Source: an uncultured delta proteobacterium (GTDB lineage Bacteria > Desulfobacterota > RBG-13-43-22). From it: a DNA stretch of 64,000 bases. Below are positions 25,571 to 44,439 of this stretch, one piece after another. Numbering within the stretch: position 1 is the stretch's first letter; the number at the start of each line of letters is the position of its first letter. The stretch lies in assembly GCA_963743305.1 (NCBI GenBank), contig CAVUPH010000022.1:1-64000 (forward strand). Reading direction: 5' to 3'. A program made the position numbers and the translations under genes. Below the pieces are notes generated by a model. That model was not told the origin of the DNA, did no database searches, and worked only from the letters and a program-made list of their open reading frames with translations.

Positions 25571-26552
25571 TTGAAAGCCCTGGTCACCGGAGGCACGGGA
25601 TTTATCGGAAGCCATCTGACAGAAGCGCTTATCCGAAAAGGAGTGGAAGTTCGTTGTCTTATCCGAAAAACCAGCGATTTGAGGTGGCTGAAGGGTCTTC
25701 CTGTCGAATTCGTTCCGGGCGATTGTAATGATAAGGCCTCGTTGGCAGAAGTCGTCAGGGGCGTCGATTGGGTGTTCCACTTGGCCGGAGCGACCAAGGC
25801 AATCAAAGAGGAAACCTATTTTGAGGTCAATGGCTTGGGAACGGAAAATCTGATCCAGGCTTGTCTTCGAAAATAATCCTCGTCTTCAAAAATTCATCTA
25901 TATTTCCAGCCAAGCAGCGGCCGGCCCAAGCAGAAGTGGCAGCAACAAAAAGGAGTTAGACCCCTGTGAGCCGGTTTCCATTTATGGCCGGAGCAAGCGC
26001 CGGGGAGAGGAAGCGGTTCTCGCCCAAGCGCATGAACTGCCAGGGCTCATCCTTCGGCCTTCTGCGGTCTACGGACCACGGGATAAAGACATCCTGGCCT
26101 TGTTCCAATGCCTCTCCAGAAGGATCAAACCCTGTCTTACCGGTCGGCGTCAACACCTTAGCCTCTGTTATGTGCAGGATATCGTCCAAGGAATTCTATT
26201 GGCCGTTGAGACTCAAGTCCGGAGTGGGGAAATCTTTTTTCTCTCTGACGGCCAGGACTACCGGATTGAGGAGATCGGTGATATTTTTGCAAAGGTCATG
26301 GGATTAACGGCTCTGCGCATCCGAGTCCCCGAACGAATGGTAGTGGGAATCGCTTGTTTTTCGGAATATTTGTCTAAATTGTTTGGGCGACCTGCTCTCC
26401 TTAACAGGGATAAAGTCGAAGAAATAGTCCAAAAGGAGTGGGTTTGCGACATCGCCAAAGCCAAAACCCTCTTAGGCTTTGAACCAAGGGTTTCACTCTC
26501 GGAAGGGGCCAGATTGACCTTCGAATGGTACAAAAGAGAAAAATGGTTATAA
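25571..26552 (+). CDS. NAD-dependent epimerase/SDR (CerR-like by context); frameshift near 25868
   Basis: VTGGTGFIG and FHLAG; after the shift KFIYISSQAAAGP..YGRSK (YxxxK), then continuous into ORF 26100..26552. Confidence 0.8.
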
Positions 26553-26565
26553 CCTAAGAACGAGG

Positions 26566-27753
26566 ATGTTCATGGATATCTTTGAAAAATGCGCACAAGC
26601 TTTGGAGTACGAATCCGGATTGAGGCAGAGCGGCCATTATTTCCTGTTCAGGAATCTAGAATCCCCGCAGGCTTCTGAGGTGCTGGTCAACGGGAAGAAG
26701 CTGATCATGATCGGCTCCAATAATTATCTTGGACTCACCAACCACCCCCGGGTGAAGGAAGCCGCAATCAAAGCCATTGAAAAATACGGTACGGGCTGTG
26801 CCGGCTCACGGTTTCTAAATGGCAATCTTGATATCCACGAAGCGCTGGAACAGAAGCTGGCGAGGTTCTTGCGGAAGGATGCCGCTCTGGTCTTCGCCAC
26901 CGGCTACCAAACCAATTTGGGGGCGATCTCCGCTCTTGTCGGGCGGAACGATGTGGCTATAATCGATATGTACGATCATGCCAGCATCATGGACGGCTGT
27001 CGCCTCTCCTTCGGCGAGGTCAAGAAATACCGGCATAATGACATGGACGCCCTGGAGAGAGCCCTCGAAGGAACCAAGGAAAAAGACAAACTGATTATCA
27101 TCGATGGCGTCTTCAGCATGGAAGGCGATCTCGCCGATCTCCCGGCCATTGTGAAGTTAGCCAAGGCCTATGGGGCCAGGATCATGCTGGATGACGCCCA
27201 CGCGATCGGCGTTCTTGGAGAGGGAGGACGGGGAACGGCGGAGCATTTCGGCCTGGAAAACGAAGTGGATCTTATCATGGGAACCCACAGCAAATCCCTG
27301 GCCGCGATCGGCGGCTTTGTCGCCGGGCCAGCCGAGGTGATCAGTTGGATCAAACACCTGGCTCGCTCGATGATGTTCAGCGCCAGCCTCCCCCCCGCCT
27401 TGGTGGCAGCGGCGAGCACCGCTTTGGACATCATTGAAGAAGAGCCCGAATTAAGAGCCCGGCTTTGGAAAAATACGCACCAGATGCTGAGCGGATTTAA
27501 GAGGCTCGGGTACGATACCGGAAAAAGCGAAACCCCGATCATTCCCGTGGTTATTAAAGACACCCTGAAAACGTACGAGATGTGCAGGCTCCTCTTTGAA
27601 AACGGGGTCTTTGTCAATGCGGTCACCAGCCCGGCAGTACCGCCAGGACGAGAACTCCTGAGGACCAGTTACATGGCGACCCATACGGAGGAACAGTTGG
27701 TTAAGGTCTTGACCGCCTTCGAAAAGGTGGGAAGACAGGTGGGGGTGATCTGA
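26566..27753 (+). CDS. spt: Serine palmitoyltransferase (PLP alpha-oxoamine synthase)
   Basis: GSNNYLGL, GTGCAGSRFLNG, DHASIMDG, DDAH, GTHSKS (PLP Lys), LRTSYMATH; gene context supports Spt over BioF or Kbl. Confidence 0.75.
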   Translation: MFMDIFEKCAQALEYESGLRQSGHYFLFRNLESPQASEVLVNGKKLIMIGSNNYLGLTNHPRVKEAAIKAIEKYGTGCAGSRFLNGNLDIHEALEQKLARFLRKDAALVFATGYQTNLGAISALVGRNDVAIIDMYDHASIMDGCRLSFGEVKKYRHNDMDALERALEGTKEKDKLIIIDGVFSMEGDLADLPAIVKLAKAYGARIMLDDAHAIGVLGEGGRGTAEHFGLENEVDLIMGTHSKSLAAIGGFVAGPAEVISWIKHLARSMMFSASLPPALVAAASTALDIIEEEPELRARLWKNTHQMLSGFKRLGYDTGKSETPIIPVVIKDTLKTYEMCRLLFENGVFVNAVTSPAVPPGRELLRTSYMATHTEEQLVKVLTAFEKVGRQVGVI

Positions 27754-27809
27754 CGGAAACCCATGACCCGACGACCGGCCGCCGGCAGAGGAAGACCGGT
27801 TGGCCGGGG

Positions 27810-28673
27810 GTGAACCTAAAGGCAACGGACGGAATAACCCTACTCTATAACTGCATCCTGGTTATTTTTACTCTAATTTTCAGGGTCAGGATCGCGGACT
27901 ACCAATACCATCTCGCTTTAAACCTCTCCGTTATCCTGCTAGTCCTTTTATTAAGCTTCAGCAGGCGGAGCCATTGGTCGGTTGGCTCGGTTAGCCTGTG
28001 GTACCCCTTGGTCCTCTATGCCCCACTCTACTATCAGACCGGGTTGATCAACAGGGTGGTCGTGCCCCGGTTCCTGGATGGCTTCTTTATGAATCTGGAT
28101 GTCCGGATTTTCGGCGAATTCCCCGCCTTTTTCCTCCGGGGGAAACAGGGGAATGCCTTCCTCGACGAGTTTTTTCACTTTTTTTATTTTAGTTATTATC
28201 TGATAATTCCTCTGACCGGCATTTTACTATTCCGCAAGGAGGTGAAGCTCTTCGAGCGTTTTGTGTTCCAGCTTTCCTCCTTGTTCTACCTCTGTTTTCT
28301 TATCTTCATCTTCCTGCCGGTTGAGGGACCGATCGCCTGGCGAAATGAATATTTTCATCCGGGCGGCCTGTTTCAGGCCCTGGTCGATTTTATTTATACC
28401 GGGGGAGAAAATCCCGGCGCCGCCTTTCCCAGTTCCCACGTGGCCGCTACGTTTCTGGTAGCCTGGTGGGGGAGCAGGCAATTTAAAAGAATGAAAATCG
28501 CTTACTGGTTGACTTTTCTGTTCCTGTCCATGGCCACCGTTTACTGCATGTTTCACTATGCCGTCGATGTTATTGCCGGGTTGATCCTCGGGATCCTCGC
28601 CGTACTTACGCTGGAGCGGATAGGCAGAAAACGTCCATACGAAAAGCCTCTTCCTGGAACGTGTCCAGAGTAG
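27810..28673 (+). CDS. PAP2-family membrane protein (AUR1/IPC-synthase-like)
   Basis: Multi-TM; YFSYY, PVEGP, AFPSSH, HYAVDV. Confidence 0.75.
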   Translation: MNLKATDGITLLYNCILVIFTLIFRVRIADYQYHLALNLSVILLVLLLSFSRRSHWSVGSVSLWYPLVLYAPLYYQTGLINRVVVPRFLDGFFMNLDVRIFGEFPAFFLRGKQGNAFLDEFFHFFYFSYYLIIPLTGILLFRKEVKLFERFVFQLSSLFYLCFLIFIFLPVEGPIAWRNEYFHPGGLFQALVDFIYTGGENPGAAFPSSHVAATFLVAWWGSRQFKRMKIAYWLTFLFLSMATVYCMFHYAVDVIAGLILGILAVLTLERIGRKRPYEKPLPGTCPE

Positions 28674-28728
28674 CGGAGAACCGCAAAAGGCCGCAAGGAA
28701 GTGCCCGAGCCTGCTAGAAGGGCGGCAC

Positions 28729-29232
28729 CTACGGCATTATCTTTTCGCGGCGCGGCTCCCCGGTCTGTAGGTCTTTGCCGTACACCTCGATATACTGGAT
28801 TTTGGGCCCTATCAGCCCGTCGGAGACCTTGATGTACATCCTCTCCAAGACCGCCGGCCGGCCGTCGATGACCGCCTCGGCCCGGAAGGCGTCCGCCCCC
28901 TTCTTCACGGTGATCGGCTGCTCGGGGGCGGCCACCAGGATCATTTTATACCCGTCAGCCGACTGGTCCGGCTTAATGGTAAAACCGTAGGCCTTTTTCT
29001 TCTCGATCCAACTGAGTCTCTCCCGGCGACCGTCCTCGGCGAGCATAATCCAGTAGGCGATCACCGGTTCCCCGGGATCCAGCTTGCCGTCGGCGGTAAG
29101 CCGGGCGTCGAAATGGACGACATTGGCGTTCCTGCTCCGCTCGATGACGAACAGCGGCGAAGTTCTAATCTGGGCCGCGGCCGACGCGGCCAGCAATGGC
29201 AGAACGGCGAACAACCAGATGGCCTTTTTCAT
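28729..29232 (-). CDS. DUF4833 family exported protein
   Basis: LFVIERSRNANVVHFD..PVIAYW..LSWIEKKKAYG..YIEVYGKD. Confidence 0.7.
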   Translation of the reverse strand: MKKAIWLFAVLPLLAASAAAQIRTSPLFVIERSRNANVVHFDARLTADGKLDPGEPVIAYWIMLAEDGRRERLSWIEKKKAYGFTIKPDQSADGYKMILVAAPEQPITVKKGADAFRAEAVIDGRPAVLERMYIKVSDGLIGPKIQYIEVYGKDLQTGEPRREKIMP

Positions 29233-29310: not shown

Positions 29311-29583
29311 TTGATGCCGGAGGAAGAAATTGTGTCCACTTTGGAGAGACTGAAAAAACTTTTTATAGCCAAGTTTGATTTCAACCTTGAGGAACTTAAG
29401 CCCACGACAACGCTCGAATATTTGGGTCTCGATTCTCTCGATATCATCGAGTTCATGTTTGATATGGAAAACGAATTCAATATCAGAATTCCTGACCGAG
29501 AGTTTACGGTAACCACCATACAGGATATGGTTAAGGCTTTGGACCGGCTCATCTCGGAACAAAAGGACAGGGATGTCCAGTGA
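29311..29583 (+). CDS. acpP: Acyl carrier protein
   Basis: LGLDSLD phosphopantetheine motif; acidic, about 90 aa. Confidence 0.85.
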   Translation: MMPEEEIVSTLERLKKLFIAKFDFNLEELKPTTTLEYLGLDSLDIIEFMFDMENEFNIRIPDREFTVTTIQDMVKALDRLISEQKDRDVQ

Positions 29584-29635: not shown

Positions 29636-30873
29636 ATGAAACGGAAAGTTGCCGTCACCGGGTTGGGCATTATTTCTTCTTGTGGGAAGACTATCGATGA
29701 TTTCTCATTGAATCTCCTGGCCGGCAAGTCTGGAGTCAGAAGAATCTCTTCAGCCTATTCAAGCCAGCTTTCAGTGAAAATTGCCGCTGAAGTCGATTTT
29801 AATCCTCTCGACTATTTCAATCAGAAACAAGTTCCCAAAATGGACCGTGTCAACCAATTCGCCTTAGCAGCCGCTTCTCAAGCCTGGAAAGATTCAGGAC
29901 TGTCTCTCAATGCGCCAGAGAAAGAGCGAGCGGGAGTTTATATCGGTTGCGCTATGGGCGGGGAAATACCATTGAGGATTTATACGATCAATTATTTAAA
30001 CATAACGCCGACAGGGTAAAACCGCTCACGGTGCTCATGGTGATGAATAGCGCTTCGGCCTCCCATATATCGATAGCCTATGGTCTCTCCGGACCCTGCT
30101 TGACGCTGTCTACTGCCTGTGCTTCCTCGGCCAACGCTATCGGGGAGGCTTTCCGGCAAGTCAGAGATGGATATGTTGACGTCTTGCTCGCCGGAGGGGC
30201 CGAGGCCTTTTTGAACTATGGAGGTTTCCGGAGCTGGGAATCTCTCCGGGTGCTGGCTGACGAAGATCCTGAAGATCCGTCAAAATCCTGCAAGCCCTTT
30301 TCCAAAAACCGTACCGGGTTAGTACTGGGTGAAGGTGCCGCCCTGGTGGTGCTTGAGGAGATGGAGAGGGCCGTACGACGGGGAGCGCCGATTTACGCAG
30401 AGCTTATTGGGCTATGGTTCCACCTCCGATGCCGTCCATATTACCGACCCGCCCTCGAAGGGCAGGCACGAGCGATGGCGGAAGCACTCCAAGAGGCAGG
30501 CGTATCGCCCAAGGATATAGACTACATCAACGCCCATGGGACGGCCACCCAGTGGAATGATCTGTTGGAGACACAGGCCATCAAGCAGGTCTTTGGCGAT
30601 ATTGCCGGCAACGTTCCCGTCAGTTCTACCAAATCGATGCATGGCCACACCATTGGAGCAGCAGGGGCCATTGAATTTATTGTTTCACTGCTGGCGATAA
30701 AAAATCAAGCCGTTCCCCCAACGATTAACCTGGACCAACCTGACCCGGAGTGCGACCTCGACTATGTTCCGAATATTGGCCGCAAAGGGGTGAAAGTGAA
30801 TTTCGTGATGTCCAATTCTTTCGCTTTTGGGGGAACCAATGCCGTGCTTATTGCCGGGAAGATGGGGGAATAG
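29636..30873 (+). CDS. fabF: Beta-ketoacyl-ACP synthase II (FabF-like); indels near 29960 and 30410-30450
   Basis: KVAVTGLG, STACASS, INAHGTAT, KSMHGH, SNSFAFGGTN. Confidence 0.85.
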
Positions 30874-30969: not shown

Positions 30970-32322
30970 CTAATGATTTCCTGTTGCCTTGGCAGCCCCC
31001 GCGAAGGGTTGGGGATTTCCCAGGCTTTTTAAATAGCGTTTACGGGTGGCGAGATTGACCCCGGCGTACGCCAGGCAACCGAGTAGGGTCCTTTTCCAGG
31101 GGCTCATGCCCAGAAATCGTTTGATCATTGCTCCGGTAGAATAGGCTTGTCTGTTCAAGCGGGCGTAGCCCCCGATGAGCTCGTCAGCCGTCATGCCTTG
31201 GGGTTGAAAGAAGAGGGTATCCGGTGGATATCCTCGCAGCCACCAGTCAGGCGCCAACAACCGGCCTTCGCTGAAGAGACGCTTATAGAGCCGTGTTCCC
31301 GGATAAGGGGTGAGAATCCTCAACTGGACCACATCCATCCGACCTCTCATGATAAACTCCAGAGTCTGCTCGAACACGTCCTTGTTTTCGTAATCAAAGC
31401 CAAAAACAAAGGAGCCCAGTATACCGAAACCTTCGCCATGAAATCGCCGCATGGCCTCATAGAAATCGATCTTCAGGTTCTTTATTTTATTCACCTCCCG
31501 CTGGGTTCCTTTCTGCACCGATTCGAATCCAATCAAAAGACCTAGGCATCCCGCCCGTTCCATCAATCGGAGCAGTTCCAAATCCTCCGCTAACGACACG
31601 GTGCCCTGGGCCAGCCAGCGCCGCCGAAGGGGGATCATTTCCGTAAAGAGCTTTTTGGCCATCTTCCGGTTAAGCCCCAGGGCGTCATCGACGAAGAAGA
31701 TGTGAGGGGAATTAATAGACGCTATCTCGGCAATCACCTCCTCAACGGGCCTGACCCGATATTGCTGCCCCAAGGTTTGGCCAATGCAACAGAATTCGCA
31801 GTCGTAGGGACACCCGCGGGAGGTCTCGACGCCGATCGGGATAGGCGTATACCCCGGCTTTCGGCTGCCGGGTAATAGATCGCGCCGGGGTTTTGGTAGA
31901 CCCTGGAGATCGGTCATTTTACCGGCCCGATATATTTTTTGCATCCGCCCGGCCGCGGCATCCTCTACCAGTTGGGGCCAGACCCCTTCCGCTTCTCCCA
32001 CGACGACTGCGTCTGCATGCGCCAGGGCTTCGTCCGGCAATACTGTGGGGTGTATTCCTCCCATTACCACCGGCACACCCTTCCGGCGATAGGTGTCACC
32101 GATAGAATAGGCTCTTAGCGCCAGTTCGGTCAGGACGGTGATGCCCACCAAATCCACCTCTTGATGGATGTCATCAGGAGCAAAGGCTTCCTCGACAATG
32201 GTAATGGTGTGCCCCGGCGGGGTGAGCGCCGCCAAAAGAGGAAGATTTACCCGCTGTAGTTTGAAGGGGCTGGATATCGTGTCTTTCCGCTGTTCATGGG
32301 GTGCGATAAGTTTTATCTTCAT
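30970..32322 (-). CDS. B12-binding radical SAM protein
   Basis: N-terminal cobalamin-binding domain (VVMGGIHPT, GEAE), SRGCPYDCEFC (CxxxCxxC), LTPYPGT. Confidence 0.9.
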   Translation of the reverse strand: MKIKLIAPHEQRKDTISSPFKLQRVNLPLLAALTPPGHTITIVEEAFAPDDIHQEVDLVGITVLTELALRAYSIGDTYRRKGVPVVMGGIHPTVLPDEALAHADAVVVGEAEGVWPQLVEDAAAGRMQKIYRAGKMTDLQGLPKPRRDLLPGSRKPGYTPIPIGVETSRGCPYDCEFCCIGQTLGQQYRVRPVEEVIAEIASINSPHIFFVDDALGLNRKMAKKLFTEMIPLRRRWLAQGTVSLAEDLELLRLMERAGCLGLLIGFESVQKGTQREVNKIKNLKIDFYEAMRRFHGEGFGILGSFVFGFDYENKDVFEQTLEFIMRGRMDVVQLRILTPYPGTRLYKRLFSEGRLLAPDWWLRGYPPDTLFFQPQGMTADELIGGYARLNRQAYSTGAMIKRFLGMSPWKRTLLGCLAYAGVNLATRKRYLKSLGNPQPFAGAAKATGNH

Positions 32323-32367: not shown

Positions 32368-33483
32368 TCATTGGTCCCCTTCCCACCGAGTAGCGACGAT
32401 ACCCAGGATGAAGACCACGGCCGCGAAACCCCCTATGATCGCGGCGTAACGCAGCGCGGCCAGGTGGTCGACCAATACCATGGAGGCCCGGAGTCCCTCG
32501 TTGACGTAGTACAGAGGCAGTGTCCTGGCGAGGGTCTGCAGGAAGCCCGGCATCATCTCGATGGGGAAGAAGCTCCCCGAGAGGAACATCATCGGGAACA
32601 TGATGGCGTTGGCGGCGGCGGCGGCACTCTGCGCCTCCCTCACGAAGCGGGTGAGTATCATCCCGATTCCGACGAAGGCGAAGACGTCAAGCACAATGAA
32701 TACCGGGAGCCAGGCGTTTATCCGCAGACTGACGTTAAACACGGCATAGCTCACCAGCAGCATGGCTACCGTCGATAGGACCGCTAGTATGAATTGGTAC
32801 AGCATGTTCGACAGTACCCAGTCCGTACGGGTAATGGGCGTAGTGGATAGCTTGCGGATGACGCCCTTCTGCCGCAGTTCCGTGTTCACGTTCACCGTCC
32901 CGAAAAGGCTCGCGGTCATCACCGCCATCGCAATGATGCCGGGGATGAAGAACTCGATGAACCGATACTTCTGGCTGAGTATCGAGGTCTCGGCCGTTTT
33001 GATGAAAGGAGACTTCCCGGAGAGCTCCTGGTTGATATAGGCGAACACCGCGTTCAGAATTTGCATCTTCATGGGCACCGAAGCGACGCTGGGGTCGTAA
33101 AGATACCGCAGGGTCACGGAGGCGTTAGAGGCGTCGTAGGCCATACTCTGGTCGAGGGATTTTTCGTACTCTTTGGGAATGATGAGCACCAGGTTCAGCT
33201 TGTTCTTCTGGGCGTACTCCCGGGCGATGATGGCGGGATCGATGTGGGTTATCTGAAACTTGCCGCTGAGTCTGAGGGTCTCGACCAGATGCCGCGAGGC
33301 CTTGGTCTGGTCGAGGTCCTGCACGTAAAGGTTGAAGCGGACGTTGTCCTGGTCCTTGAAAATAGTGCCGAAGACGAGTATCAGGAGGATCGGGAAGGCA
33401 ATCGTGAAGAACATGGCGGTCTTCTCGCGGTAGAAGCTCTTGACGCTCACGACGAGATTGGCGCCGACGACTCGCAGGGTCAT
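32368..33483 (-). CDS. ABC-2 type transporter permease
   Basis: FFIPGIIAM, PMMFLSGSFFP, LPLYY. Confidence 0.9.
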   Translation of the reverse strand: MTLRVVGANLVVSVKSFYREKTAMFFTIAFPILLILVFGTIFKDQDNVRFNLYVQDLDQTKASRHLVETLRLSGKFQITHIDPAIIAREYAQKNKLNLVLIIPKEYEKSLDQSMAYDASNASVTLRYLYDPSVASVPMKMQILNAVFAYINQELSGKSPFIKTAETSILSQKYRFIEFFIPGIIAMAVMTASLFGTVNVNTELRQKGVIRKLSTTPITRTDWVLSNMLYQFILAVLSTVAMLLVSYAVFNVSLRINAWLPVFIVLDVFAFVGIGMILTRFVREAQSAAAAANAIMFPMMFLSGSFFPIEMMPGFLQTLARTLPLYYVNEGLRASMVLVDHLAALRYAAIIGGFAAVVFILGIVATRWEGDQ

Positions 33484-34433
33484 TCCGCCTCCCTTCTCCC
33501 GGCGAGACCTTCGCGGGGCGCCTCGCCGGTGAGCTTGAGGAAGACTTCTTCGAGGTTGGGCCTGCGAACGTCCAGGCCGCGCAGCGACGTCCCGGTTTCC
33601 CTGATGGTCTTCAGTATCTTCTCGACGTCGTCCGGGTGCTCCACTCTGACCTTGAGGTCTTGGTGGTGGTCCAGTACCGGCTCGAAGCCCATATTTCGGA
33701 CGGTTTCCAAGGCTTTTTTATCGGCGGACTGCAGCGTCAGAACCAGGTAATTCAGGCGGCCTTCGATGAGCGCCCCGGGAGAGCCCAGGGCGATGATCCT
33801 TCCTTTCGAGATGATGGCCACCGTGTCGGCCAGGAGCTCCGCCTCTTCCATGTAATGCGTGGTCAGGAAGACGGTCTTCCCCTTCTTCTTCAGGTCCAGC
33901 AGGATTTCCCAGACCTCTCGCCTGGCGCGGGGATCGAGCCCCGTCGTCGGCTCGTCGAGGAAAACGACCTCGGGGTCGTTGACGAGGGCAATCGCGATTC
34001 CGAGGCGCTGTTTCAAGCCCCCGGAGAGGTTCTGATACTGCTCCCGGGTCTTTTCCTTTAGCTTGACGAGTTCTATCAGCCCGTCGATGTCGATGTTCTT
34101 GCAGCAAAAAAGCCGCGAGTAGTACTGCAGGGTCTCTCGGACCGTTATCCTGTCGAACGAGCTGAACCCCTGCGGGAGGACGCCGATGCGGGGGACGATG
34201 TCGTGTTTCTTCTTGGTGACGTCCATTCCCAGAAGGGTCACTTTCCCGGACGTGGGCCTGCGGATGGTGTCGACGATCTCGACGGTCGTGGTCTTGCCGG
34301 CGCCGTTCGGGCCCAGCAGGGCGAAAACCTCGCCTTCCCTGACGTGGAACGATATATCGTTGACCGCCAATAAATCCCCGTAGCGCTTCGTCAGGTTCTC
34401 GACTTCGATGGTATATTCCGCTTCTTTCGTCAT
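33480..34433 (-). CDS. ABC transporter ATP-binding protein
   Basis: GPNGAGKT, LSGG, FLDEPTTGLD, TTHYMEEA. Confidence 0.95.
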   Translation of the reverse strand: MTKEAEYTIEVENLTKRYGDLLAVNDISFHVREGEVFALLGPNGAGKTTTVEIVDTIRRPTSGKVTLLGMDVTKKKHDIVPRIGVLPQGFSSFDRITVRETLQYYSRLFCCKNIDIDGLIELVKLKEKTREQYQNLSGGLKQRLGIAIALVNDPEVVFLDEPTTGLDPRARREVWEILLDLKKKGKTVFLTTHYMEEAELLADTVAIISKGRIIALGSPGALIEGRLNYLVLTLQSADKKALETVRNMGFEPVLDHHQDLKVRVEHPDDVEKILKTIRETGTSLRGLDVRRPNLEEVFLKLTGEAPREGLAGRREAE

Positions 34434-34487: not shown

Positions 34488-35243
34488 TCAGCGATGGCGC
34501 CGGTTCAAGAGGGCGATGGACAGCCACCCCTTCGCCCGGGGAAGTGAACGTACCCGCAGGGACCGGTCGGCAGCCCGGGGAAACCGTTCCAGGGCTTTTC
34601 CCGATAAGCCCACCGGAAAGATGTACCCGCCGTCCCCCCCGACCGTCTCCCCGGCCGACAGATAGACGGTGATTTGGCGCGGATCCAGGAGATGAAAGGC
34701 ACATCCCAGGGCTTTGACCACGGCTTCCTTGATAGACCAGAGCAGTGCCCCGGCCTCTTCCCACGCTCCGTCCGCCACCCTCAAGGCCTGTTGAAGTTCT
34801 TGTGGCTGGAAGACCCGCTGGAAGGGGTATTCTCCTTGGAATTCATCGCACCCGGCCACATCGATGCCGATAGACGATTCATCTCCGCAGAGAGCGGCCC
34901 AGAGTTTTCCCCCACCCTCGCTGAAGGAGACGGACGGACCCCGATATTCCCCTAAGAGGAGATAGGGTCGGCCAAGCAGGCCGCATGCCACCTGAATCGG
35001 CCAACCAGTTCCGTTGGAGACTTGACAGCGTTTCCAAAGAGGACTTTCTCTAGTCACCGTATGGTCCCACAGGGCGGAGACAAGGCGGTGCTTGTCCTCC
35101 GCCCCGTTCGTCCCACACCCTTCGCGCGTTTTGTCGGCGCCTACCCTCCCATAGGGTAAAGAGGCATAGAAAACGGGTCCCCCTCCCGGAGCGAAAGGCA
35201 CGGACTGAACGGTTAATCCTTGGCAATCCTCGGCCAGATCCAT
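34488..35243 (-). CDS. 4'-phosphopantetheinyl transferase (Sfp-type)
   Basis: GRPYL, IGIDV, WSIKEAVVKALG. Confidence 0.8.
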   Translation of the reverse strand: MDLAEDCQGLTVQSVPFAPGGGPVFYASLPYGRVGADKTREGCGTNGAEDKHRLVSALWDHTVTRESPLWKRCQVSNGTGWPIQVACGLLGRPYLLLGEYRGPSVSFSEGGGKLWAALCGDESSIGIDVAGCDEFQGEYPFQRVFQPQELQQALRVADGAWEEAGALLWSIKEAVVKALGCAFHLLDPRQITVYLSAGETVGGDGGYIFPVGLSGKALERFPRAADRSLRVRSLPRAKGWLSIALLNRRHR

Positions 35244-35285: not shown

Positions 35286-38200
35286 TCAGTCCGAAATCCA
35301 GTGCATCCGCAACCCATGAATCTGCATGAGAATGCGGCCCTCGTCGTCAACCCCTCTGGCGTCCCAGGAGGAGCCTTCGTCGTCCTGCGCCCGTCTGCGG
35401 GCTTCCAGGGTGATCTGTTCCCCTGCCCGGCATTTTCGCCGGAACCGCATCTCTCCGATCTCCATGGGAATCAACAATCGCCGCTCCGCCGGGTCCGTGG
35501 CCGCGAGGTGGAAGCCGACCAACTGCAAAAGGGCCTCGAAAAGGTAGGGAGCGTATTGGTACCGGGCGTTCCGCAGATGGGCGAAATCACGTGTCTCCCG
35601 GTAGGTGGTTCGGCCCCGCACCACCCCGGGACCTGCACCGTCAAGGAACTCCATCACGCGATACCGGCCTTCGAGGCCGCTGCGGTTTTTGTACCATTTA
35701 AGCACCTTCTTCTGATTCATGGGCTTCGTCCGCAGTTCGTCCGGCCGGACAGGAAAATCCGGCAACTCCTCCCCGAGAAATCCTCCCCCGTCATCCCCGC
35801 CATCAAGGATCACGTAACCTTGGCTGCGCGGGGTGAAGCGGTCGGTCAATCTCCCGGCGAGGGAGATCTCCTCTGTGGCCAGAGAGATCTCGCACCAGAC
35901 CTCTCGAAGGCCGTTGTCGACCCGACGGCAGGAGACCCTGGAAGGCCGTGGAACCCCGAGAGGACAGGGGATCATGTCCAGTAGCCGCACCCGACGAACT
36001 CCTCGCACCTGCAGGTGGGGATACAGGATCCGGGCGGCTTCCATGAAGGTCTCCACCACCATGGCGGCTGAGACCAAAGGATGCTTGATGAACTTGAAAG
36101 GTCGGTGATCCGCGATCCAAAGATCCTTCTCCAGGGAAAAGGATCTCAGGGCCACCAGCTCTTCCCGACGGAGGTCCAGGCCAGAGATCCTTTCTATCAG
36201 GGGGAAGTCCTCGGGGCTGAAGGACACGGCGCCTCCCTCCAGTTCTCCACCGGGCGCAGAACGGACGGTATCATTGAGCCGTGACGTCCTCACGGCGGGC
36301 AGTCTCCTCATGAACATCACCCAATCGTCGTCGGCCGGGGCGACAAAGAGCTCCCGGCAGAATAACCCCGCCAGCTCATTGACCTGGATGTAGGCCACGC
36401 CTTTCCGCTTCATCAACTCCCGGACCTCCGGATCCTCGGCCATGCCCGTCCCCTCGACCGGGGGCAGCATCAAAGCCTTGAACCGGATGGCGCCGTTTTT
36501 CCGGTGGAGGGCTCTGAGGTAACGCCGACATCATCCGGTTGGCGGCGGCGTAGTTGGCCTGGCCGGGATTCCCCTGGATGGCGGCCGCCGAAGAGAGGCC
36601 CACGAAAAACCTCAACCCGGCCCCCTCCGCAGCCGAGAATAGGTTCCAGGCCCCAAGGAATTTAACGTCCGTGACCAGGGAGAAATCATCCGCGGTCATT
36701 TGGCTGAAGAGCCCGTCCCTGAGGACTCCGGCGCCGTGAATGATCCCGTCGATCTTGCCGTAACGGCCGATCACCTCGCCCAGGATCGCGCGGACCTCCT
36801 CGGGGTCGGTCACGTCGCAGGAGTGGTAGGTGGCCTCGATCCCTGAAGCGTGTAAGTCCGCCAGGGTCCGGGCGATCTCCGTCGCCCGGTGGTTGAAGGG
36901 AAACGCCGCGGCCGGCGCAGGTTCGGGTGGCCGCTGTTCGGGCCGGAGGCCTGGATTCGAGAGGGGTCCTCCCTAGAAAGACGAGGCGGGGCCCGAAAGG
37001 CGCCAGGCAGCGGGCCAGGTGGGCGCTGATCCCGGTTGCGCCCCCGGACATGACGACGACGTCTCCAGCGCTCAGCTTCAGGCCGGACGAATCCCCGAAG
37101 ACCGACGGGGCTAAGCGCCCCTCCGAAGTGAAGACCTTTCCCTCGCGATAAATGATCTCCACCACGGTGCGACCTCTATCCAGAGCGGCGCGTAGCGCGT
37201 TGCCCAGGTCGGTATCCCTGCCGATTTCCATTGTGCGAAACTGGACCGAGGGGTATTCCTGCGCTGCGCTTAAGAATAGTCCGAGCATCCCTTCCATCAG
37301 CAATCGAACCGGAGTTTCAGCATCCTCCCGGGAATGGATCAGCATCACGAATTTCTTGGACGGTGATTGCAGAAAGGCCTGCAGGAGGAGAAAAAGTCCC
37401 CTAAGCAGCCGCGAAACATCCGCCAGGCTGCTTGACTTTCCCGGCCCGCCTTGGGGTAAGGTGATGACCATCCCAGCAAAGGGCGAAAGGTTGGATAGCC
37501 GCTCTACAGCCCTGGAGGACCCTTCATCGGTTCGAAGGTCGTGGCCCTCAACGCCCTGACCCCAATCCCCTTGACTGAATAGCATGGGAAACGGTTCAAC
37601 CCCGTACTCCAGCCGGAGGATATCCCTTGCCCTTCCGGCAAGCCCGTCATCCGCGTCGGACGAGAGAAACAGGACCGACTCGCCCGGGCTCAATTCCACG
37701 GGAATAGAGCCCGCCGACTCCACCTGGGCCCGGTTGAAAACGAGCCGTTTCAAGCTTTCCTCCGCTGAAGTCTTCCGGATTTCATCCCCTACCGGGCTGG
37801 AGTCAACAGCCTTGGTGACCGGTTGCAGACCGGGGACTCCCTGCCTGGCGATGACCTTGGAAATTCTCTGGGCGACGTCTTTTACCGTACGGACGCCGAT
37901 AAAATCCTCCAGTTCGATAGTGATCCCGAATTGGCGTTCCGCGGCATCCATGATGATGGGGAGACGGCTGGATCGGATGGAGAGGTCCCTGCGGAGATCC
38001 ATTTCGGGTTGGATCTCGTCCCTATTGAATCCGGTAGCCTCCATGATGATCCGAATTAGCCTCTCCATAAGCTCTTGGCCCTCAGGCGCCTCTTCGGGGG
38101 CAGGTGGGGCCTTGTCCCGGGAATAGCCGGCCAGGGGCGGAATCCCCTTACGAGAAGGGGAGAGGCCGGTTTGGAGGCCCTGCGAATCATGATCGACTCT

Positions 38201-41200
38201 TAATCCGTCAGCATTGCCGGCAGGTGTTTCCTTCCGGCCCTCAGTGGACCGGAACCCACCAGCATGGATTTGATAACGGATAAGAGATCGCCTTCTTGGA
38301 AGGTGGGGTCAAGTTCCTGGCGGATGGCTTTCAGGATGTTGGGCTTAAGGAGGCCTCCGAAGGTCTCTATCACGAATCGATTGATTTCCCTTTGAATGAT
38401 CCTCTCCGCCGGGTTGGAACCTGCCGGCCCGGGTTCCGACGTTTGTGCCGCGGGTGCCGGAGCGATCTGGTGCGATTCCGGAGTTTTTTTGGATGCCGAG
38501 AGGGAAACAAATCTTGGTTCCCCTTCAATCTTCAGATGACCTTGAACGAAGAGCTGAGCCAGAGCGGTCTTGTAGGTCAGACCCTCTGCGGAGGGAAAGC
38601 TCGTCTGGATGCCTGCCGATTCAGGAAGCGTCTCGGCGATGAGATTGCTTAATGTTTCGCCGGGTCCCACCTCCACGAAGAGCCGGACTCCGTAGTCATT
38701 CCAAAGGGTCTGGACATTATTCATCCACTGGACGGGTGATTCCAGGTGGGCCATGAGGATTCGCCTGATCTCATCGGGATCCGACGGATACGGCGCCCTG
38801 GTCGTGTTGGAGATGACGGGAATCTGCGGGGAATGAAAGGGAATGGAGGCAATGTAGGCCGCGAGCTCCTCATGGATGACCTTCATGATCGGCGAGTGGA
38901 AGGCCATGCTGACCCGCAAGAGGGTGGCCCGGTGACCCATTTCTTTGAATCGTTTGCACAGATCCTTGACGGCCTCGGTGTTGCCGCTCAGAACGATCTG
39001 GTGCGGTGAATTGATATTGCCGATGTGGACATCGTCCCGCCCCTGGATCATCTCCTTCAGCAGCTCCGGGGGGACGTCCACAGCCGCCATGACGCCGGGG
39101 TCCAGGTGCAGGCCGGCGGCCTTGTCCATGCAGAGGGCCCGCTTGTTCACGATTCGAAACCCGTCCTCCGGGGAATAGACACCGGCCAGGCCTAAGGCGG
39201 TCAACTCGCCCAAACTATGGCCGGCCATGGCCACGGGCTGGATGCCCAGGGTCATGAGGTGTCGAGCCATGGCCTGTTCCATGGTAAACAGGGCCGGTTG
39301 CTGCCACCGGGTCTTCTGAAGGTCCTCCTCCCGATCGTGGAACAATAAGTGGAGGAGATCGAAGTCCGCTACGGCCGCGGTCCGATCCATCCACTCCCTG
39401 ATGACGGGAAAGGACTCGTAGAGCTCCTGACCCATTCCCGCGTACTGGGACCCCTGTCCGGGAAATACCAAGGCCAGCGGCCGGGCCGGCAAATCCTCGC
39501 GGCTCATGAAAATTCCCTGCTGCGCCAGGGACCTCGAGGCCCGGGGTGAGGCCATTCCGGATTCGGCCAGGGACGCCGACCGTTCGATGATCGTGAGCGC
39601 CTCCTCTTCGGATGGCGCCACGACGGCCATCCGGCAGGTCCGGCCGTCCATCTCGGTCCGGAAGAAAGAGACGCCCTGGAGTGTTGGAGAGCCACCCCCT
39701 TTCTGCCGATCGAGACCGGGCTCTCGGCCCGGTGAGACCAGGATCGTATCCACCTCATTCAGAGCCTGCTCCACCTGCACCACGTAGTTGGAACCTCCAA
39801 ACCCGAAGGCGTTGACTTGAAGCCTTCTCGGCTCGCCGGCCCGGCCCTTCCAGTCCAGCGGCTCCGGGGTAATGAGGAGACCCGAACCTTCCAGGTCGAT
39901 TTCCGGGTCTGGATGCCTATAATTGAGGGTGGAGGAAAAATCCCCGCCTGCATGGCCGTGACTCCTCGAATGAGGTTATTGAGGCCCGAGGCGCCCAGGG
40001 TGTGTCCGATCTGGGATTTGAATGAGGTGATCACGGTGCGCTTGGAGGAAGGGAAGACGGCCTTCAGTGCCCGGGCCTCCTCCACGTCTCCTTGCCGGGT
40101 GCTCGTGGCATGGCATTCCACCAGGTCCACGGCCTCGGGCCCATAGGGTGTCTCTCGGAAAGAGTTGCGGATGGCCATCTGCTGGGTGACGTTGGAGGAC
40201 TCCACCATGCCCAGATGGTTGTTGCTCGCTCCCATGCCGGTCACGACGGCGTGGACACGCGCCCCTCTGGCGCGGGCCAGGCTTTCCCGCTCGATGACGA
40301 TCATTCCCCCGCCCTCGCCGAGGACCATCCCGTCTCTTTCCGCATCGAAGGGGCGAGAGGTCTCCTGAGCGGGTCTTTCCTTTCCGGACAGCCCGTACAG
40401 TGCGCCCAACGCGGAGAATTCCAGAAAATGCAAGTGGGTGAGATTGTCTTCACCCCCCCCGACGATAGCGGCATCGAGGATGCCGTTCCGGATCATCTGG
40501 ATGGCGCTGTAAAGGGCGACCAACGAGGTCGCGCAGGCCGCGGAGACCGCATAGCTGGGGCCCATGAACCCATACCGGTTGCAGATGAAGCCGGCCGCCG
40601 CGCAGTTGAGCCGGCCCAAAAGGGTGGTGTCATCCGGGGCCAGGCGTCCGGACTTCACCGCTCGTTCGACGGCGCGCTCCTGCTCCGGCGTGAGGAATAA
40701 CGGCCTTTTGGACAGCGCCCAGGATATCATGAGCGTACTCCCTGATAATCATATTGGTGAGGGTCCCCGCCGCCTCCCCCGAGTTTTGGGAGATGAGGAC
40801 GCCGATTCGTTCGCGCGGGATGTCCGCATCCAGGATCCCGGAGGCCCGGATGGCCTTGTCCGCCAGCCACATGGTGATCCGGGTCGCCGCGGTCATGGTC
40901 CGGAAATCATGGGGAGGAATACCGAGTTCGGTGCGGGAGATAGGAAAGTCTACGAAGGCGCCTACCTGGCAGTAGGTCTTATCCGGAACCTGCGGCCGGG
41001 GATCATAAAAAAGCGCGTGGTTCCACCGCGAAGCCGGAACCACGGTAATCCCGCTCTTCAGGGCCAGGCTGGCCGCCCAGACTTCCTCCGGACTCTTCCC
41101 CAGGGCATTGAGCAGGCTCATCCCGGTGATGGCCACCCTATCAGGTTCGTCTCCGTCGGGGGTGATTCGCCTCAGCCTACGGCCGACCCCGGAGGATGAA

Positions 41201-43272
41201 GTTTCCGGGGTTTTTTCGATCGACCCCACCACGGGCTGCTGCAGCCGGAGAGGACCTTCGGCCAGCTCGCGGTGAAAGGAGAGCAGCGTCCGGACCTCGT
41301 GGATGAGCCCGGCGCAGGCCCCACTCATGAATTGCCCGCGTTCCAGAAAATCCCGCTCCTCCAGCGCTACCCCGCCCGGGCGGTCCAGGCCCCGGGCCGC
41401 CGTGAAAAGACTCCCCGCCGCCATCGCCTCCATCTTCGCCCGGAAAGCGGTTTCGTCCTGGTGACCCGCCGCAAACTCCCTCTCCAGCGATAAGATCGCT
41501 TCCACTCGGGGGGTCCGCAGGGACCGCACCCGAAGCCCCGTGGGCTGGCCCGTAACGGCCGTTCCCCCCGGGGGCGATTCCAGGACCATCCGCTGATACC
41601 GCGCGGTCAAGGCGCCTGTTTCAATGATCTCCCGGGTAGCCAGGTAGGCGCTGCCCATCTGGATGGCGTCCGCGCCCAGCATGGCGGCCAAGAAGGCGGT
41701 CTCCCGGTTAAAGATTCCCCCGGCCAGGATCAGGCGACCCTTTTGAAAGAGGGCGGGCTGGCGCCGCTTGAGATCCAGCAGGCTTTGAGCCAGGGTGAGC
41801 GTGCTATGCTGCCCCACGTGGCCGCCGGCCTCATAGCCCTCGCAGACCACGTACCGAACGCCGGCTTCCAGAGCGAGCCTCAACAGGGCCTCATCCGGGG
41901 CGATATAGATGACCTCCAGGCCACAGTCCAGCAATTCTCTTACGGGGGAGAGGTCGCCGCCGGCGATGACCACCAAAGGGGGTTTCTGTTTCTTAATCCA
42001 GGCCAGGTGCTCCTCCCGGAAGGGGTTTTCCACCAAAGAGACGACATTCACCGCATAAGGGCGCCCAGCCATGATCTCCGGCAGGCGTCCCAGCCTCCGC
42101 TCCAGGGCCTCCGCGCCCATCAGGCCCAGGGCGATGGTGGGCAATCCGCCGGCCTCGGCAACGCTTGAGGCAAATTCCGGGACATCGGTAATCCAGGACA
42201 TGGCGCCCTGGATAAAGGGGTATCGGGTCCCCAGCTCCCTGGCGGCCGGGCTGTCCAGAAAGCAATCCTTTTTGGCCCCGGCCAGGCGGCTGAGGTCACG
42301 AATTTCGTCCAGGAAGGCGTTCACGGCCTCCTCGGTTCCGGCCCCGAAACGCTCAACGAACGACGCCGCAAAGGCCGCTTCCACGCCCAGCGGGATGACC
42401 TCGTCCTGACCGAAATGGCTCTCCAGAGGATGGAGGGCCCTGGCCTGCACCTGGCTGACGAAGGAACGGCGGCTTTGCTCCGTGATCTTTGCGCTGGACA
42501 GCGAGTCCTCGAACGCTTTGATCTCCTTGAAGGCCAGGGAGTTTCCTTTGGTGAACAGGCGGCAGGGAACCTGCAGGGCCAGGCCCACCAGATCGGTGGA
42601 ATCCAGACGGAGGTTGGAGAGTCGCGGACGTTGAACCTCATCAAGGGCCACCAGATCCGTCAGCCAATGGACGCTCTCGAAAACGATCCCGGCGGCCCCG
42701 GTCGACAGGAAGGCCGCTGCCGCCTCCGGGGTGGCGACGCCTCCCCAGAGGATAATGTCGAGAGGCTTTGAGGGGGGGCGTTCCATGTCCTTGACCAGCG
42801 AATAGAGGGTCGTGGTCGTCTCTCCGCTCACGAAGCCAGAGGCCTCGCACCCTTTCAGGACGATGCGCCCGAGGCCCGCGCTATCCTTCAGGATCGTTGC
42901 CAGGAGATCCAGGTCAGCGATGATTGGAAAGCAACGGTGGTCATCCGACAATTCCCTCAACCGCTGCAGCCAGCGGGAAGGATCGCCTTGAAAAAACCGG
43001 GGGTGGCACTCGACCCAGATGTCGTGGACCCCGGTTTCCTTTAATAACGGCCCCAAAGAGGGATCAAAGAAGGCAGAGACGGAAATCTTGATATCCCGGA
43101 CCTGGCCGGCGGGGGCCGCCTTTCGTAAGAAAGAACGTACCCTGTCCATCCCCATCCCGGAAAAATCGAAGACCGCCCGGCTTCCTGTCCGCCGGGCCAT
43201 TTGAAGCACGGCTGGGGTGATCTCCTCGGGCCGCCAGACGAAAGCGATGATAGCCAGTCGCTGCTCAGCCAC
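35286..43272 (-). CDS. Iterative type I FAS/PKS, ~2,660 aa: (FabK/NMO-like ER) x2 - KS - AT - ACP - KR - DH; split by about 5 frameshifts
   Basis: ER: PFIQGAM, EGYEAGGH, LAGGI..QMGS. KS: SAACATS, ECHATST, KSQIGH, VNAFGFGG. AT: FPGQGSQ, GHSLGE, MAFHS. ACP: DLSIRSS. KR: SGGATGI, GQANYAAAN. DH: IADHRP, FEALLQ. Shifts near 40700, 39930, 38230, 36900 and 36520. Confidence 0.85.
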
Positions 43273-43311
43273 TTAATCCGGTCCCTTTCGGCAAGGCGCG
43301 CCATTGCCCAG

Positions 43312-44439
43312 TTAAGACGATAATGCTTTTCTGAATAGGCGATATTTCTTGCATGTTTTTGCGCCGGTTTCCTCTATCAGGGAGTTGATCGACTCGTTGT
43401 CTTCCAGGGTCCAGCCCAACTCCAGATAATGATATTTCTCTTTCTTCCTCACCACCTCAAATATGTGGTGGAAGGCTAACAGGGGGAGTCCCAGTTGCTG
43501 GTACTTCTCCTTAACCCCGAAGATCAGGCACCTCAATCCCCTGATCTCCCGCCGATACCTGAGGAACTTCAGCAAACCCAGCAGCCCGACCCGTCCGTTC
43601 AAACGCTTGAGTAACGGGTTGATGTCGGGAAAGATCACGCAGGCCGCTGCGGGCTCATTCTCATAATAAATGAAGAAGACCAAGTCCGGATCCACGAATT
43701 TCATCACGTTCTTTTGAATGTCCCGCATCTCCCGATCGCTTAAGGGGACGAAACCCCAGTTGCCCGACCAGGAGGCATTGTAGATCTCTCTGATCAGCGC
43801 GAACTCAGCGTCCACCTCCTTGGGGCGCGAGGGCCTGATGTGGACCCCTTTTTTTCGGGAAATCCGTTCCGCCAGACGATCCATCCACTCGGGAAGACGG
43901 TAATCGCCCTCTATCAAGAAGGCCAGCAGGTCCTTCTCTTTGGTGTAACCGCACGATTCTACCAACCCGGGGTAGTACGGCGGGTTGTACACCATCATTA
44001 AGGACGGCGGGTAATTGAATCCCTCGATGAGCAAGCCCACCTCGTAATTGGTGGATGGGTTGAGCGGGCCTCTCATGAAGGTCATCCCTTTTTGAAAAGC
44101 CCAGGTCTCTACGGAAGAGAAGAGGGCCGCCGCGGCCTCCGGATCGTCAACGCATTCAAAGAATCCCCAAATGCCCATCTTTTCGTCATGGAACCGGTTA
44201 TAATGGCGATCGATGATGCCCGCGATCCTTCCCACCGTCTCCGAACCGCGTCGGGCCAGAAAGAGGATGCGTTCGGAAAATTTCCAGAAAGGATGCTCAC
44301 CGGGGTCCAGCATCCGGCGAACCTCCCCCTTGAGGGGGGGGACCCAGTGGGGATACTCCGCATAGATCCTCCAGGGCAGGTCAATGAAGTCCTTTAGCTC
44401 CGACCCCCCTTCCGACGCAATGATCTCTAGGCCGTCCAT
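43312..44439 (-). CDS. Tandem-GNAT protein, bacterial ceramide synthase (bCerS)-like
   Basis: FIDLPWRIY..WVPPL, VGRIAG, GFFEC, RGPLNPS...GLLIEGF, YNPPYY, NWGFVP, PDIN, WTLEDN. This pattern matches the bCerS family, and spt lies in the same cluster. Confidence 0.7.
   Translation of the reverse strand: MDGLEIIASEGGSELKDFIDLPWRIYAEYPHWVPPLKGEVRRMLDPGEHPFWKFSERILFLARRGSETVGRIAGIIDRHYNRFHDEKMGIWGFFECVDDPEAAAALFSSVETWAFQKGMTFMRGPLNPSTNYEVGLLIEGFNYPPSLMMVYNPPYYPGLVESCGYTKEKDLLAFLIEGDYRLPEWMDRLAERISRKKGVHIRPSRPKEVDAEFALIREIYNASWSGNWGFVPLSDREMRDIQKNVMKFVDPDLVFFIYYENEPAAACVIFPDINPLLKRLNGRVGLLGLLKFLRYRREIRGLRCLIFGVKEKYQQLGLPLLAFHHIFEVVRKKEKYHYLELGWTLEDNESINSLIEETGAKTCKKYRLFRKALSS

Follow-up and report, generated by a model that had tools for sequence, protein, structure and literature searches.

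Where might the N-acyl chain of a bacterial ceramide come from when the enzymes of ceramide synthesis share an island with a complete fatty-acid megasynthase? The question is raised by a stretch of 64,000 nucleotides (positions 1 to 64,000 of contig CAVUPH010000022.1, assembly GCA_963743305.1; hereafter, the window) from an uncultured delta proteobacterium. Through a list of open reading frames (ORFs) and scans with Pfam and NCBIfam, we located 12 genes between 25481 and 44439 (~19 kb), forming two convergent arms. The plus-strand arm carries genes for a short-chain dehydrogenase/reductase (SDR), an alpha-oxoamine synthase (AOS) resembling serine palmitoyltransferase (Spt), a PAP2_3-family membrane enzyme, an acyl carrier protein (ACP) and a FabF-type synthase. 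The minus-strand arm encodes a tandem-GNAT N-acyltransferase, a type I iterative fatty-acid/polyketide megasynthase, a 4'-phosphopantetheinyl transferase (PPTase), the two subunits of an ABC exporter and a B12-binding radical SAM enzyme. The end of the FabF gene and that of the radical SAM gene are 96 bases apart, and a DUF4833 gene lies on the minus strand between the plus-strand PAP2_3 and ACP genes. The gene order and strands given in an earlier note on this DNA were borne out, every gene it named lying where the note had placed it.

The answer that we favor, with a probability of about 0.58, is that the island encodes a ceramide-type pathway in which the GNAT enzyme offloads the ACP-bound acyl chain of the megasynthase onto a long-chain base. 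The roles of Spt, SDR, PAP2_3 and the pump are drawn from family membership and conserved neighborhood, those of the megasynthase and GNAT from gene coupling only. Below, G000 is the source genome of the window, other G labels are other genomes, L labels are related loci or contigs, and C stands for contig.

The megasynthase and the tandem-GNAT enzyme

The megasynthase gene (35289..43272, minus strand) was delineated from Pfam matches on its frame pieces, together with a frame map. The earlier note had read its product as ER-KS-AT-ACP-KR-DH. All of these domains were found, but the N-terminus carries two FabK-like domains and not one, for an overall order of FabK'-FabK(ER)-KS-AT-ACP-KR-DH. The first 350 residues, which have no Pfam match, are predicted to fold as the second FabK-like TIM barrel (predicted local distance difference test score, pLDDT, 89.5; template-modelling (TM) scores of 0.65-0.75 to FabK). 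In an intact orthologue of 2648 amino acids (aa), Pfam recognized an NMO/FabK-type ER, KS, AT, two PP-binding (ACP) domains, KR and PS-DH; in the window's megasynthase there is apparently one.

The catalytic motifs of ER, KS, AT, ACP, KR and DH, as we take them to be defined, are kept in the window's pieces, so that all the domains and motifs of a fully reducing iterative type I fatty-acid synthase/polyketide synthase (PKS) occur on one polypeptide. The AT has an xAFH-type motif, presumably a malonyl signature. A release domain is lacking: DH comes last, and neither a thioesterase nor a reductase or condensation domain is present. Judged by these sequence features, the megasynthase looks active. 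The gene for the Sfp-type PPTase (34488..35243, minus strand; Pfam ACPS, 42.6 bits) comes after that of the megasynthase in every orthologous locus examined.

Just 40 nucleotides separate the megasynthase gene from the GNAT gene on the same strand (43312..44439, minus). The 375-aa GNAT protein matches no Pfam or NCBIfam family, and its identification came from a fold model, synteny and a tree. The AlphaFold2 model (pLDDT 91.8, predicted TM score 0.90) had tandem-GNAT enzymes as its top fold matches, namely 5kf1, 7q3a, 2wpw and MshD, the kinds of protein represented being glucosamine N-acetyltransferase, MAB_4324, a clavulanate tandem GNAT and MshD itself. A profile of the family gave weak GNAT matches against the sequences of solved structures (best E 0.0033). 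Bacterial ceramide synthase (bCerS) has a GNAT fold, and the window protein, as modelled, would likewise be a GNAT-fold N-acyltransferase in the range of ~350-400 aa. The term GNAT is absent from PMC11087976.

A profile of the GNAT gathered more than 2,200 proteins, the few named ones being called N-acetyltransferase or acyl-CoA N-acyltransferase. In a search for related loci with an alignment of 6 rows, 597 loci were confirmed, and we examined the neighborhoods of the best 80 of them, on contigs taken from one genome per species. A homologue of Spt was encoded within 3 kb of the GNAT gene in 45 of these 80 loci, an SDR within 5 kb in 35 and a PAP2 homologue within 5 kb in 19. Another 23 loci showed neither Spt, SDR, PAP2 nor megasynthase, albeit with less than 3 kb of flank on one side in 8 of them. 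The loci carried the labels Acidobacteriota, Zixibacteria, Bdellovibrionota, Gemmatimonadota, Myxococcota, Elusimicrobiota and Planctomycetota, among others. In the window, GNAT and Spt are on the same island, 15.6 kb apart, and no other member of the GNAT family was found in G000.

For the closest GNATs (50-81% identity), those of L023, L024, L025, L028, L030 and L119, the next gene downstream that matters here is an orthologous megasynthase, with GNAT placed directly upstream of it. In a quick maximum-likelihood tree of 97 sequences, the megasynthase-linked GNATs formed a clade of 10 rows (SH-like approximate likelihood ratio test 100, stem 0.71) nested among Spt-linked members. Synteny and tree place the GNAT in an Spt-linked family, in agreement with the earlier note's reading of the gene as bCerS-like, and we describe it as a bCerS-like N-acyltransferase, an assignment made by fold and gene neighborhood. 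The genes spt, bcerS and cerR are reported to cluster in bacteria (PMC11334938, PMC11087976), which matches the neighborhood found here; published bCerS screens, as described in PMC11334938, used E ≤1e-30 and 50% coverage against the Caulobacter protein.

An independent search, seeded by the megasynthase, gave 17 genomes with this synthase, G000 included, in a sample of 401 from the phylum. GNAT is directly upstream in 5 of 17 other megasynthase loci, including all four in which the synthase is at least 69% identical, and the GNAT-linked form is present in 6 of the sampled phylum genomes, counting G000.

Some members of the GNAT family stand apart from these patterns. In L027, L029, L031, L032, L050 and L074 the gene has neither Spt nor megasynthase nearby, and the housekeeping neighbors are uninformative on function. 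In one of them, L027 (a metagenome-assembled genome of the Desulfomonilaceae), a GNAT of the clade with no synthase nearby is followed by a 359-aa ORF of no family and by alpha-amylase and GH57/DUF3536 genes. The same kinds of gene (alpha-amylase, GH57/DUF3536) occur in the window at 53075-58040, 9-14 kb from the GNAT gene, which may be a coincidence. Among 63 longer GNAT homologues (658-2000 aa) none was fused to a PKS or an AOS; nearly all were ~780 aa long with GNAT-type domains alone, and many came from Planctomycetota. The ~780-aa proteins match the entire 375-aa GNAT and have the look of family members that were doubled or extended.

The Spt arm

The AOS gene (26566..27753, plus strand) raises the question of whether its product is an Spt or one of the related enzymes BioF and Kbl. 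Among NCBIfam models the best score was for SerpalmtaseCFB, an Spt model of the Bacteroidota type (545.9 bits), versus 413 for Kbl and 394 for bioF. The comparison with solved structures in the PDB gave the same ranking, with 423 bits for Sphingobacterium SPT (3a2b/8guh), 277-282 for KBL and no more than 222 for BioF. The genome has a genuine bioF on another contig (G000:C24, 447 bits versus a cut-off of 426), between bioA and bioD; unlike the AOS gene of the cluster, this bioF is common to the same-genus genomes. On these scores the cluster enzyme is of the Spt type and neither BioF nor Kbl, in line with the assignment made previously. The score remains under the NF047600 cut-off of 640 bits, as do those of the orthologues in L113 (551) and L111 (590); by sequence, the enzyme is Spt-like, short of a certified equivalog.

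The SDR gene (25481..26549, plus strand; the listed ORF has its first start codon at 25571) encodes a candidate CerR-like ketoreductase of the NAD-dependent epimerase/dehydratase type, its first piece matching Pfam Epimerase with 71.5 bits. It is thus an epimerase-type SDR encoded together with spt and GNAT, as expected of a CerR, and this synteny recurs in the 35 loci counted above.

The PAP2_3 protein (27810..28673, plus strand; PF14378, 76.5 bits) is a candidate head-group transferase with orthologues 76% identical in L113 and 52% identical in G393. It is like the AUR1/IPC-synthase-type PAP2 enzymes in being a PAP2_3 membrane protein inside a ceramide cluster, a likeness of family membership alone, AUR1 being, we assume, a member of PF14378. 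A literature search on PAP2 proteins in bacterial ceramide phosphoethanolamine synthesis turned up no paper on the combined topic.

The arm is completed by a stand-alone ACP (29311..29583, plus strand; Pfam PP-binding, 47.7 bits), whose orthologue comes after Spt or PAP2 in L112, L113 and L175, and by a FabF-type beta-ketoacyl-ACP synthase II (29636..30873, plus strand), whose two pieces match positions 1-108 and 110-405 of the NCBIfam fabF model.

Linkage of the two arms in other genomes

The same two convergent arms are present on G044:C148 (L113), where every gene is intact and the proteins are, gene by gene, 64-84% identical to those of the window. There, SDR, Spt, PAP2, ACP and FabF face radical SAM, ABC, ABC, a FemAB-like gene, PPTase, synthase, a 281-aa ORF and GNAT. 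A metagenome contig, L175, shows the same convergent layout, DUF4833 included, as far as its stored stretch reaches. The recurrence of these arms in G044:C148 and L175 implies that the arrangement is not due to chance.

Elsewhere the genes are ordered differently. G393 has, on one strand, GNAT, synthase, PPTase, ABC, ABC, radical SAM, SDR, PAP2, a 163-aa ORF and a gene for an 1125-aa fusion of FAAL, ACP and AOS. In G386, SDR, a second radical SAM, GNAT, synthase, PPTase, ABC, ABC and radical SAM follow one another with a PAP2_3 gene beside them, while G404 has GNAT, synthase, PPTase, SDR and a family-2 glycosyltransferase with a weak match to the ceramide-glucosyltransferase family. In G264, a FemAB-like gene, ABC, ABC, radical SAM and two ORFs precede an Spt that is 83% identical. 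Counting G000 and G044, the megasynthase arm is therefore linked to sphingolipid genes in at least five gene orders, and the two arms do co-occur in other genomes, as the reading in the earlier note requires.

Exporter, radical SAM enzyme and DUF4833 protein

Following the PPTase gene, the minus strand encodes a DrrA-type ABC exporter ATPase (33480..34433; NCBIfam drrA, 273 bits) and an ABC-2 type exporter permease (32368..33483; Pfam ABC2_membrane_3, 114.7 bits).

The radical SAM enzyme (30970..32322, minus strand) combines a B12-binding domain (PF02310, 38.6 bits) and a radical SAM domain (PF04055, 54.3 bits) with a DUF4070 tail, which places it in the cobalamin-dependent class B. It belongs to no curated family, the best NCBIfam match being HpnJ with 98.6 bits versus a cut-off of 577.6, and the closest solved structure is AprD4 (58 bits). 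Orthologues with 77-88% identity close the megasynthase arm in L113, L117, L164, L166 and L168.

The DUF4833 protein (28729..29232, minus strand; PF16117, 116.9 bits) begins with a signal-peptide-like stretch. Of 41 related genomes, G000 alone yielded DUF4833, and the 14 control genomes yielded none. In metagenomes, 8 of 22 DUF4833 loci lie beside homologues of Spt, SDR, PAP2, GNAT or radical SAM, and all 8 belong to the 9 relatives that reach 60% identity. Four of the 8 adjoin canonical Spt-GNAT-SDR-PAP2 operons with no megasynthase in the stored stretch.

Some related loci carry further genes. In L028 (G042), genes for an APS kinase and a sulfotransferase lie between GNAT and the megasynthase, and a B12 radical SAM gene and a MacB-type ABC pump come before this group; the arrangement hints at a sulfated product. 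The FemAB-like (Acetyltransf_6) gene comes after the PPTase gene in G041 and G044 and before the ABC ATPase gene on G264:C78, a contig without PPTase. In G041 (L117, G041:C4) one more B12 radical SAM gene is present, together with a gene of the sulfatase/LtaS type.

Proposed pathway and alternatives

In the pathway that we propose, Spt would form a keto long-chain base by condensing an acyl thioester with serine or a related amino acid; the acyl chain would probably be carried by the cluster's own ACP after extension by the cluster's FabF. The SDR would reduce the 3-keto group. On the other arm, the megasynthase, primed by the adjacent PPTase, would assemble malonyl units, on its own ACP, into an unbranched and fully reduced acyl chain, and the tandem-GNAT enzyme would release this chain by N-acylating the long-chain base. 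That the chain may be very long, as the earlier note suggested, is a guess. Ceramide would then be made straight from the assembly line, with no acyl-CoA intermediate. The PAP2_3 enzyme would add a phospho head group and the B12 radical SAM enzyme would tailor the lipid, the likeliest class of reaction being a radical change at an unactivated carbon, such as C-methylation. Finally, the DrrAB-type ABC pump would move the lipid out of the cytoplasmic leaflet, while the DUF4833 protein, given its putative signal peptide, may act outside the cytoplasm.

The hand-off from megasynthase to GNAT, which is the weakest step of this model, we infer because the megasynthase has no release domain and GNAT is encoded directly upstream of it. 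Spt could be imagined as the chain taker instead, condensing the ACP-bound chain of the megasynthase with serine into an unusual long-chain base in the manner of SgaA/SgaB, with GNAT adding an ordinary acyl group from acyl-CoA. There is a precedent for an iterative type I PKS passing acyl thioesters to an Spt, in Pseudomonas fluorescens (as reported in PMC12134224); Spt and megasynthase are on one island in G000, G044 and L175; and a Claisen-type offload by the AOS would also free a chain that has no release domain to act on it. However, in the loci examined the immediate neighbor of the megasynthase is GNAT and never Spt, and in the window the megasynthase is 7.5 kb from Spt and on the other strand, rather than adjoining the AOS as in SgaAB. 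In G041 and G386, moreover, Spt is on another contig with a GNAT of its own. We favor GNAT over Spt because the Spt arm has its own ACP and FabF in the window and, in G393, a FAAL-ACP portion fused to the AOS, which makes a megasynthase that feeds Spt rather improbable.

A different possibility is that two unrelated modules happen to be neighbors, and that the GNAT-megasynthase-PPTase-ABC-radical SAM set makes some other N-acyl lipid, such as a lipoamino acid or an acylated amine. Several observations point this way. In G041 the module has no Spt, SDR or PAP2 homologue in the ~58 kb around it, and a separate SDR-Spt-GNAT operon with FabF is on another contig. Indeed, G041, G042, G386 and G264 all keep a separate and complete canonical Spt-GNAT locus, so that the megasynthase-linked GNAT could acylate another amine. 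The accessory genes of the module vary (APS kinase and sulfotransferase in L028, FemAB-like and sulfatase-type genes in G041), and the clade of megasynthase-linked GNATs has a long stem, in a tree for which the careful search was unfinished. Further observations weigh against the pathway proposed here. Of the 17 other megasynthase loci, 12 have no GNAT within 1.5 kb, meaning that the synthase family is wider than its GNAT-linked form; in G029, for example, the megasynthase comes after two amidohydrolases. The AOS domain of the G393 fusion, too, scores higher as bioF (346 bits) than as Spt (294 bits).

That the modules are unrelated nevertheless seems unlikely in view of the linkage to sphingolipid-type genes in G000, G044, G393, G386, G404 and G264. 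G000 and G044:C148 have no other GNAT beside Spt, and an Spt-like match was found somewhere in all 10 of the other module-bearing genomes checked, some of these matches being only 37-45% identical. A GNAT that takes its acyl chain from the megasynthase and transfers it to a long-chain base remains, on this balance, our preferred explanation.

Frameshifts in the assembled genes

The earlier note made no mention of frameshifts. The frame map and a protein-to-DNA comparison with intact orthologues revealed that three cluster genes are broken by seven single-base frameshifts. One is in the SDR gene, near 25871, and one in the FabF gene, near 29961, inside a run of G. The other five are in the megasynthase gene (around 40698 and 39928, somewhere from 38392 to 38080, and around 36900 and 36519), which, as assembled, is not one uninterrupted frame but six frame pieces. 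By the same frame map and comparison, the seven breaks were single-base frame changes alone, and neither in-frame stops nor deletions were seen at them. Several of the shifts fall in short homopolymers.

Intact orthologues exist for all three genes. The SDR of L113 (L113:1836-2816, 326 aa) is 74-75% identical to that of the window, and the same contig has an intact FabF (L113:5321-6565, 414 aa). Intact megasynthases occur as single ORFs of 2533-2825 aa (2648 aa in L025, 2569 aa in L113), and the window's pieces are 62-89% identical to the L025 orthologue along its whole length.

Are these frameshifts real? To gauge the assembly, we compared it with G002, a genome of the same genus: 77 long ORFs of G002 had a G000 orthologue ≥60% identical (~110 kb aligned), and 10 of these were split over frames in G000. 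Within the window but outside the cluster, an AcrB/RND pump gene (6376-9589, plus strand) is also split, into two overlapping ORFs matching Pfam ACR_tran at 2-211 and 207-1020, which we read as a further assembly frameshift. Public sequencing runs showed shares of at most 0.23, and four of them yielded fragments 90-99% alike, from relatives rather than source reads; in contigs of these related organisms one extra base was seen at 39930 (two runs) and at 38245 (two runs), and both sites fall within frame-switch zones.

The seven frameshifts are most likely assembly indels, and the organism probably has intact genes, because intact orthologous clusters exist elsewhere and shifts are spread across the assembly. 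Real decay has to be considered since the local density, 7 shifts in 18.9 kb, is about 4 times the genome-wide one (~11 in 110 kb), and rpoB and rpoC are unbroken in G000. If so, the island would be a decaying relic in this genome, with no product. Decay does occur in the family: G044:C331 (L112) is a second copy cut by a transposase, in which SDR, Spt, ACP and FabF face ABC, ABC and PPTase, the synthase is reduced to its last 124 aa beside a DDE transposase, and a 437-aa unknown protein occupies the place of the missing PAP2 and radical SAM. That the island was not found in the same-genus genomes (see below) would also fit a relic. Yet the spread of frameshifts over long genes genome-wide and into AcrB, the homopolymer context, the absence of stops and deletions, the identity of the megasynthase pieces to L025 and the retained catalytic motifs together make a relic distinctly unlikely.

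The island and its surroundings

No match to GNAT, the megasynthase or the Spt-type AOS was found in any of the three same-genus genomes (77-97% complete). DNA from the genus matches the window up to 25576 on the left, where the G002 contig ends, and resumes at ~44651 on the right; the PLD-like and phosphatase genes to the left of the island are 96% identical to G002. The G+C content is 60.2% in the megasynthase arm and 52.5% in the Spt arm, with genome contigs ranging from 53.0% to 57.3%. Repeats of 10 bases or longer, whether direct or inverted, were not found at the island's borders, and a scan for promoters and terminators did not rise above shuffled sequences (11 versus 6.7 ± 2.3 and 24 versus 22.9). 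The 19-kb stretch is probably an accessory biosynthetic island that was horizontally acquired.

Several features nearby may be recorded. The PLD-like gene (22135-23562, plus strand; 96% DNA identity in G002) is part of the genus core. A homologue 71% identical to it, itself frameshifted (L025:8425-9817), lies divergently beside the GNAT-megasynthase module in G041, which may reflect a head-group role or a coincidence. A stretch of ~170 bases at ~17925-18093, downstream of a RecQ-like gene, has dozens of copies with 81-96% identity on many G003 contigs and looks like a small dispersed repeat or a miniature inverted-repeat transposable element. At ~24277-24393, some 1.2 kb outside the left border of the island, an element of 45-115 bases between the phosphatase gene and a 190-aa ORF is present in many copies in G001 and G002. 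On the right, the 287-aa ORF at 44647-45510 (plus strand) has a valine-rich, low-complexity translation and no family match; its DNA is conserved in the same-genus genomes, and it is probably not a gene in the listed frame.

Relation to known systems

The cluster resembles the Spt/bCerS/CerR system of Caulobacter crescentus in that an Spt-type AOS, a GNAT-fold acyltransferase, an epimerase-type reductase and a dedicated ACP are clustered, a likeness judged by families and clustering. It differs in that GNAT is apart from Spt and coupled to a 2,600-aa megasynthase, and in the addition of PPTase, ABC exporter, B12 radical SAM, PAP2_3 and DUF4833. FabF also takes the place of an acyl-ACP synthetase, which the Caulobacter ceramide cluster is said to include. 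Spt, bCerS and CerR have been described, with acyl-CoA or acyl-ACP given as the substrate of Spt (PMC11087976, PMC11334938). A paper whose text does not contain the word "polyketide" reports Spt-like proteins from 40 phyla, including Desulfobacterota (PMC11334938).

The closest parallel for a PKS is the pair SgaA, an iterative type I PKS, and SgaB, an Spt, described as a PKS-fed sphinganine pathway in Pseudomonas fluorescens MYb115; SgaAB clusters are reported as widespread, with 6101 homologous clusters, mostly in Burkholderia (PMC12134224). As in SgaAB(C), an iterative type I PKS is here genetically coupled to an Spt-type AOS and an SDR. In SgaAB(C), however, the PKS adjoins and feeds the AOS and the reductase is KDSR-like, whereas in the present system, carried by lineages labelled Thermodesulfobacteriota and others, it is the N-acyltransferase to which the megasynthase is coupled; the megasynthase begins with two FabK-type domains and is accompanied by PPTase, ABC pump and B12 radical SAM. 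The earlier note knew of no characterized PKS-fed ceramide pathway in Desulfobacterota, a remark that must be qualified: a PKS-fed route is published, in Pseudomonas, but the GNAT-coupled form appears to be undescribed in the literature searched.

Comparable features are also found in the Pfa-like "secondary lipid" synthases, several types of which are reported from sulfate reducers and Geobacter (Shulse and Allen 2011, PMC3098273). Like these, the megasynthase is iterative and multidomain, with a FabK/PfaD-type ER, an adjacent PPTase and a patchy distribution resembling that left by horizontal gene transfer. Unlike them, it is one protein with an N-terminal ER, one or two ACPs and no CLF or FabA-type DH pair. 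In the text passages of PMC3098273, its figures aside, neither this architecture nor a link to Spt is described for Pfa-like synthases.

A literature search combining bacterial ceramide synthase with polyketide synthase returned the work of PMC12134224 and its preprint alone, and one combining Spt, polyketide synthase, radical SAM and sulfate-reducing returned nothing relevant. Within this literature, a bCerS-like GNAT that is coupled to a synthase of the order FabK-FabK-KS-AT-ACP-KR-DH, in the company of a PPTase, an ABC exporter and a B12 radical SAM enzyme, appears to be undescribed.

Significance

How bacteria make ceramide was worked out only recently, and 2025 saw the publication of a pathway in which a PKS feeds formation of the long-chain base. 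The cluster described here points to a second coupling, in which a fatty-acid megasynthase is wired to the N-acyltransferase step, and the module is both conserved and mobile. Going further, and tentatively, since we hold the odds to be somewhat short of even, the tandem-GNAT enzyme and the megasynthase might constitute a new kind of ceramide synthase, one that takes a de novo N-acyl chain directly from the ACP of the synthase to the sphingoid base. It would come with radical SAM alteration of an unactivated carbon, ABC export and a secreted DUF4833 protein that handles the lipid in the periplasm, as a mobile cassette in anaerobes (Thermodesulfobacteriota and others).

The island also provides a first functional context for DUF4833 and for an unassigned family of B12 radical SAM enzymes. 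The Caulobacter work, as reported in PMC11087976, still lacks a lipid exporter, and the ABC pump of the cluster offers candidates for it. The gene sets, intact orthologues included, are clonable and could be used in the search for new sphingolipid structures in anaerobes. If this more far-reaching interpretation is correct, some of the unassigned sphingolipids seen in anoxic waters and sediments could stem from the module, and a mobile cassette would give anaerobic bacteria structurally unusual sphingolipids.

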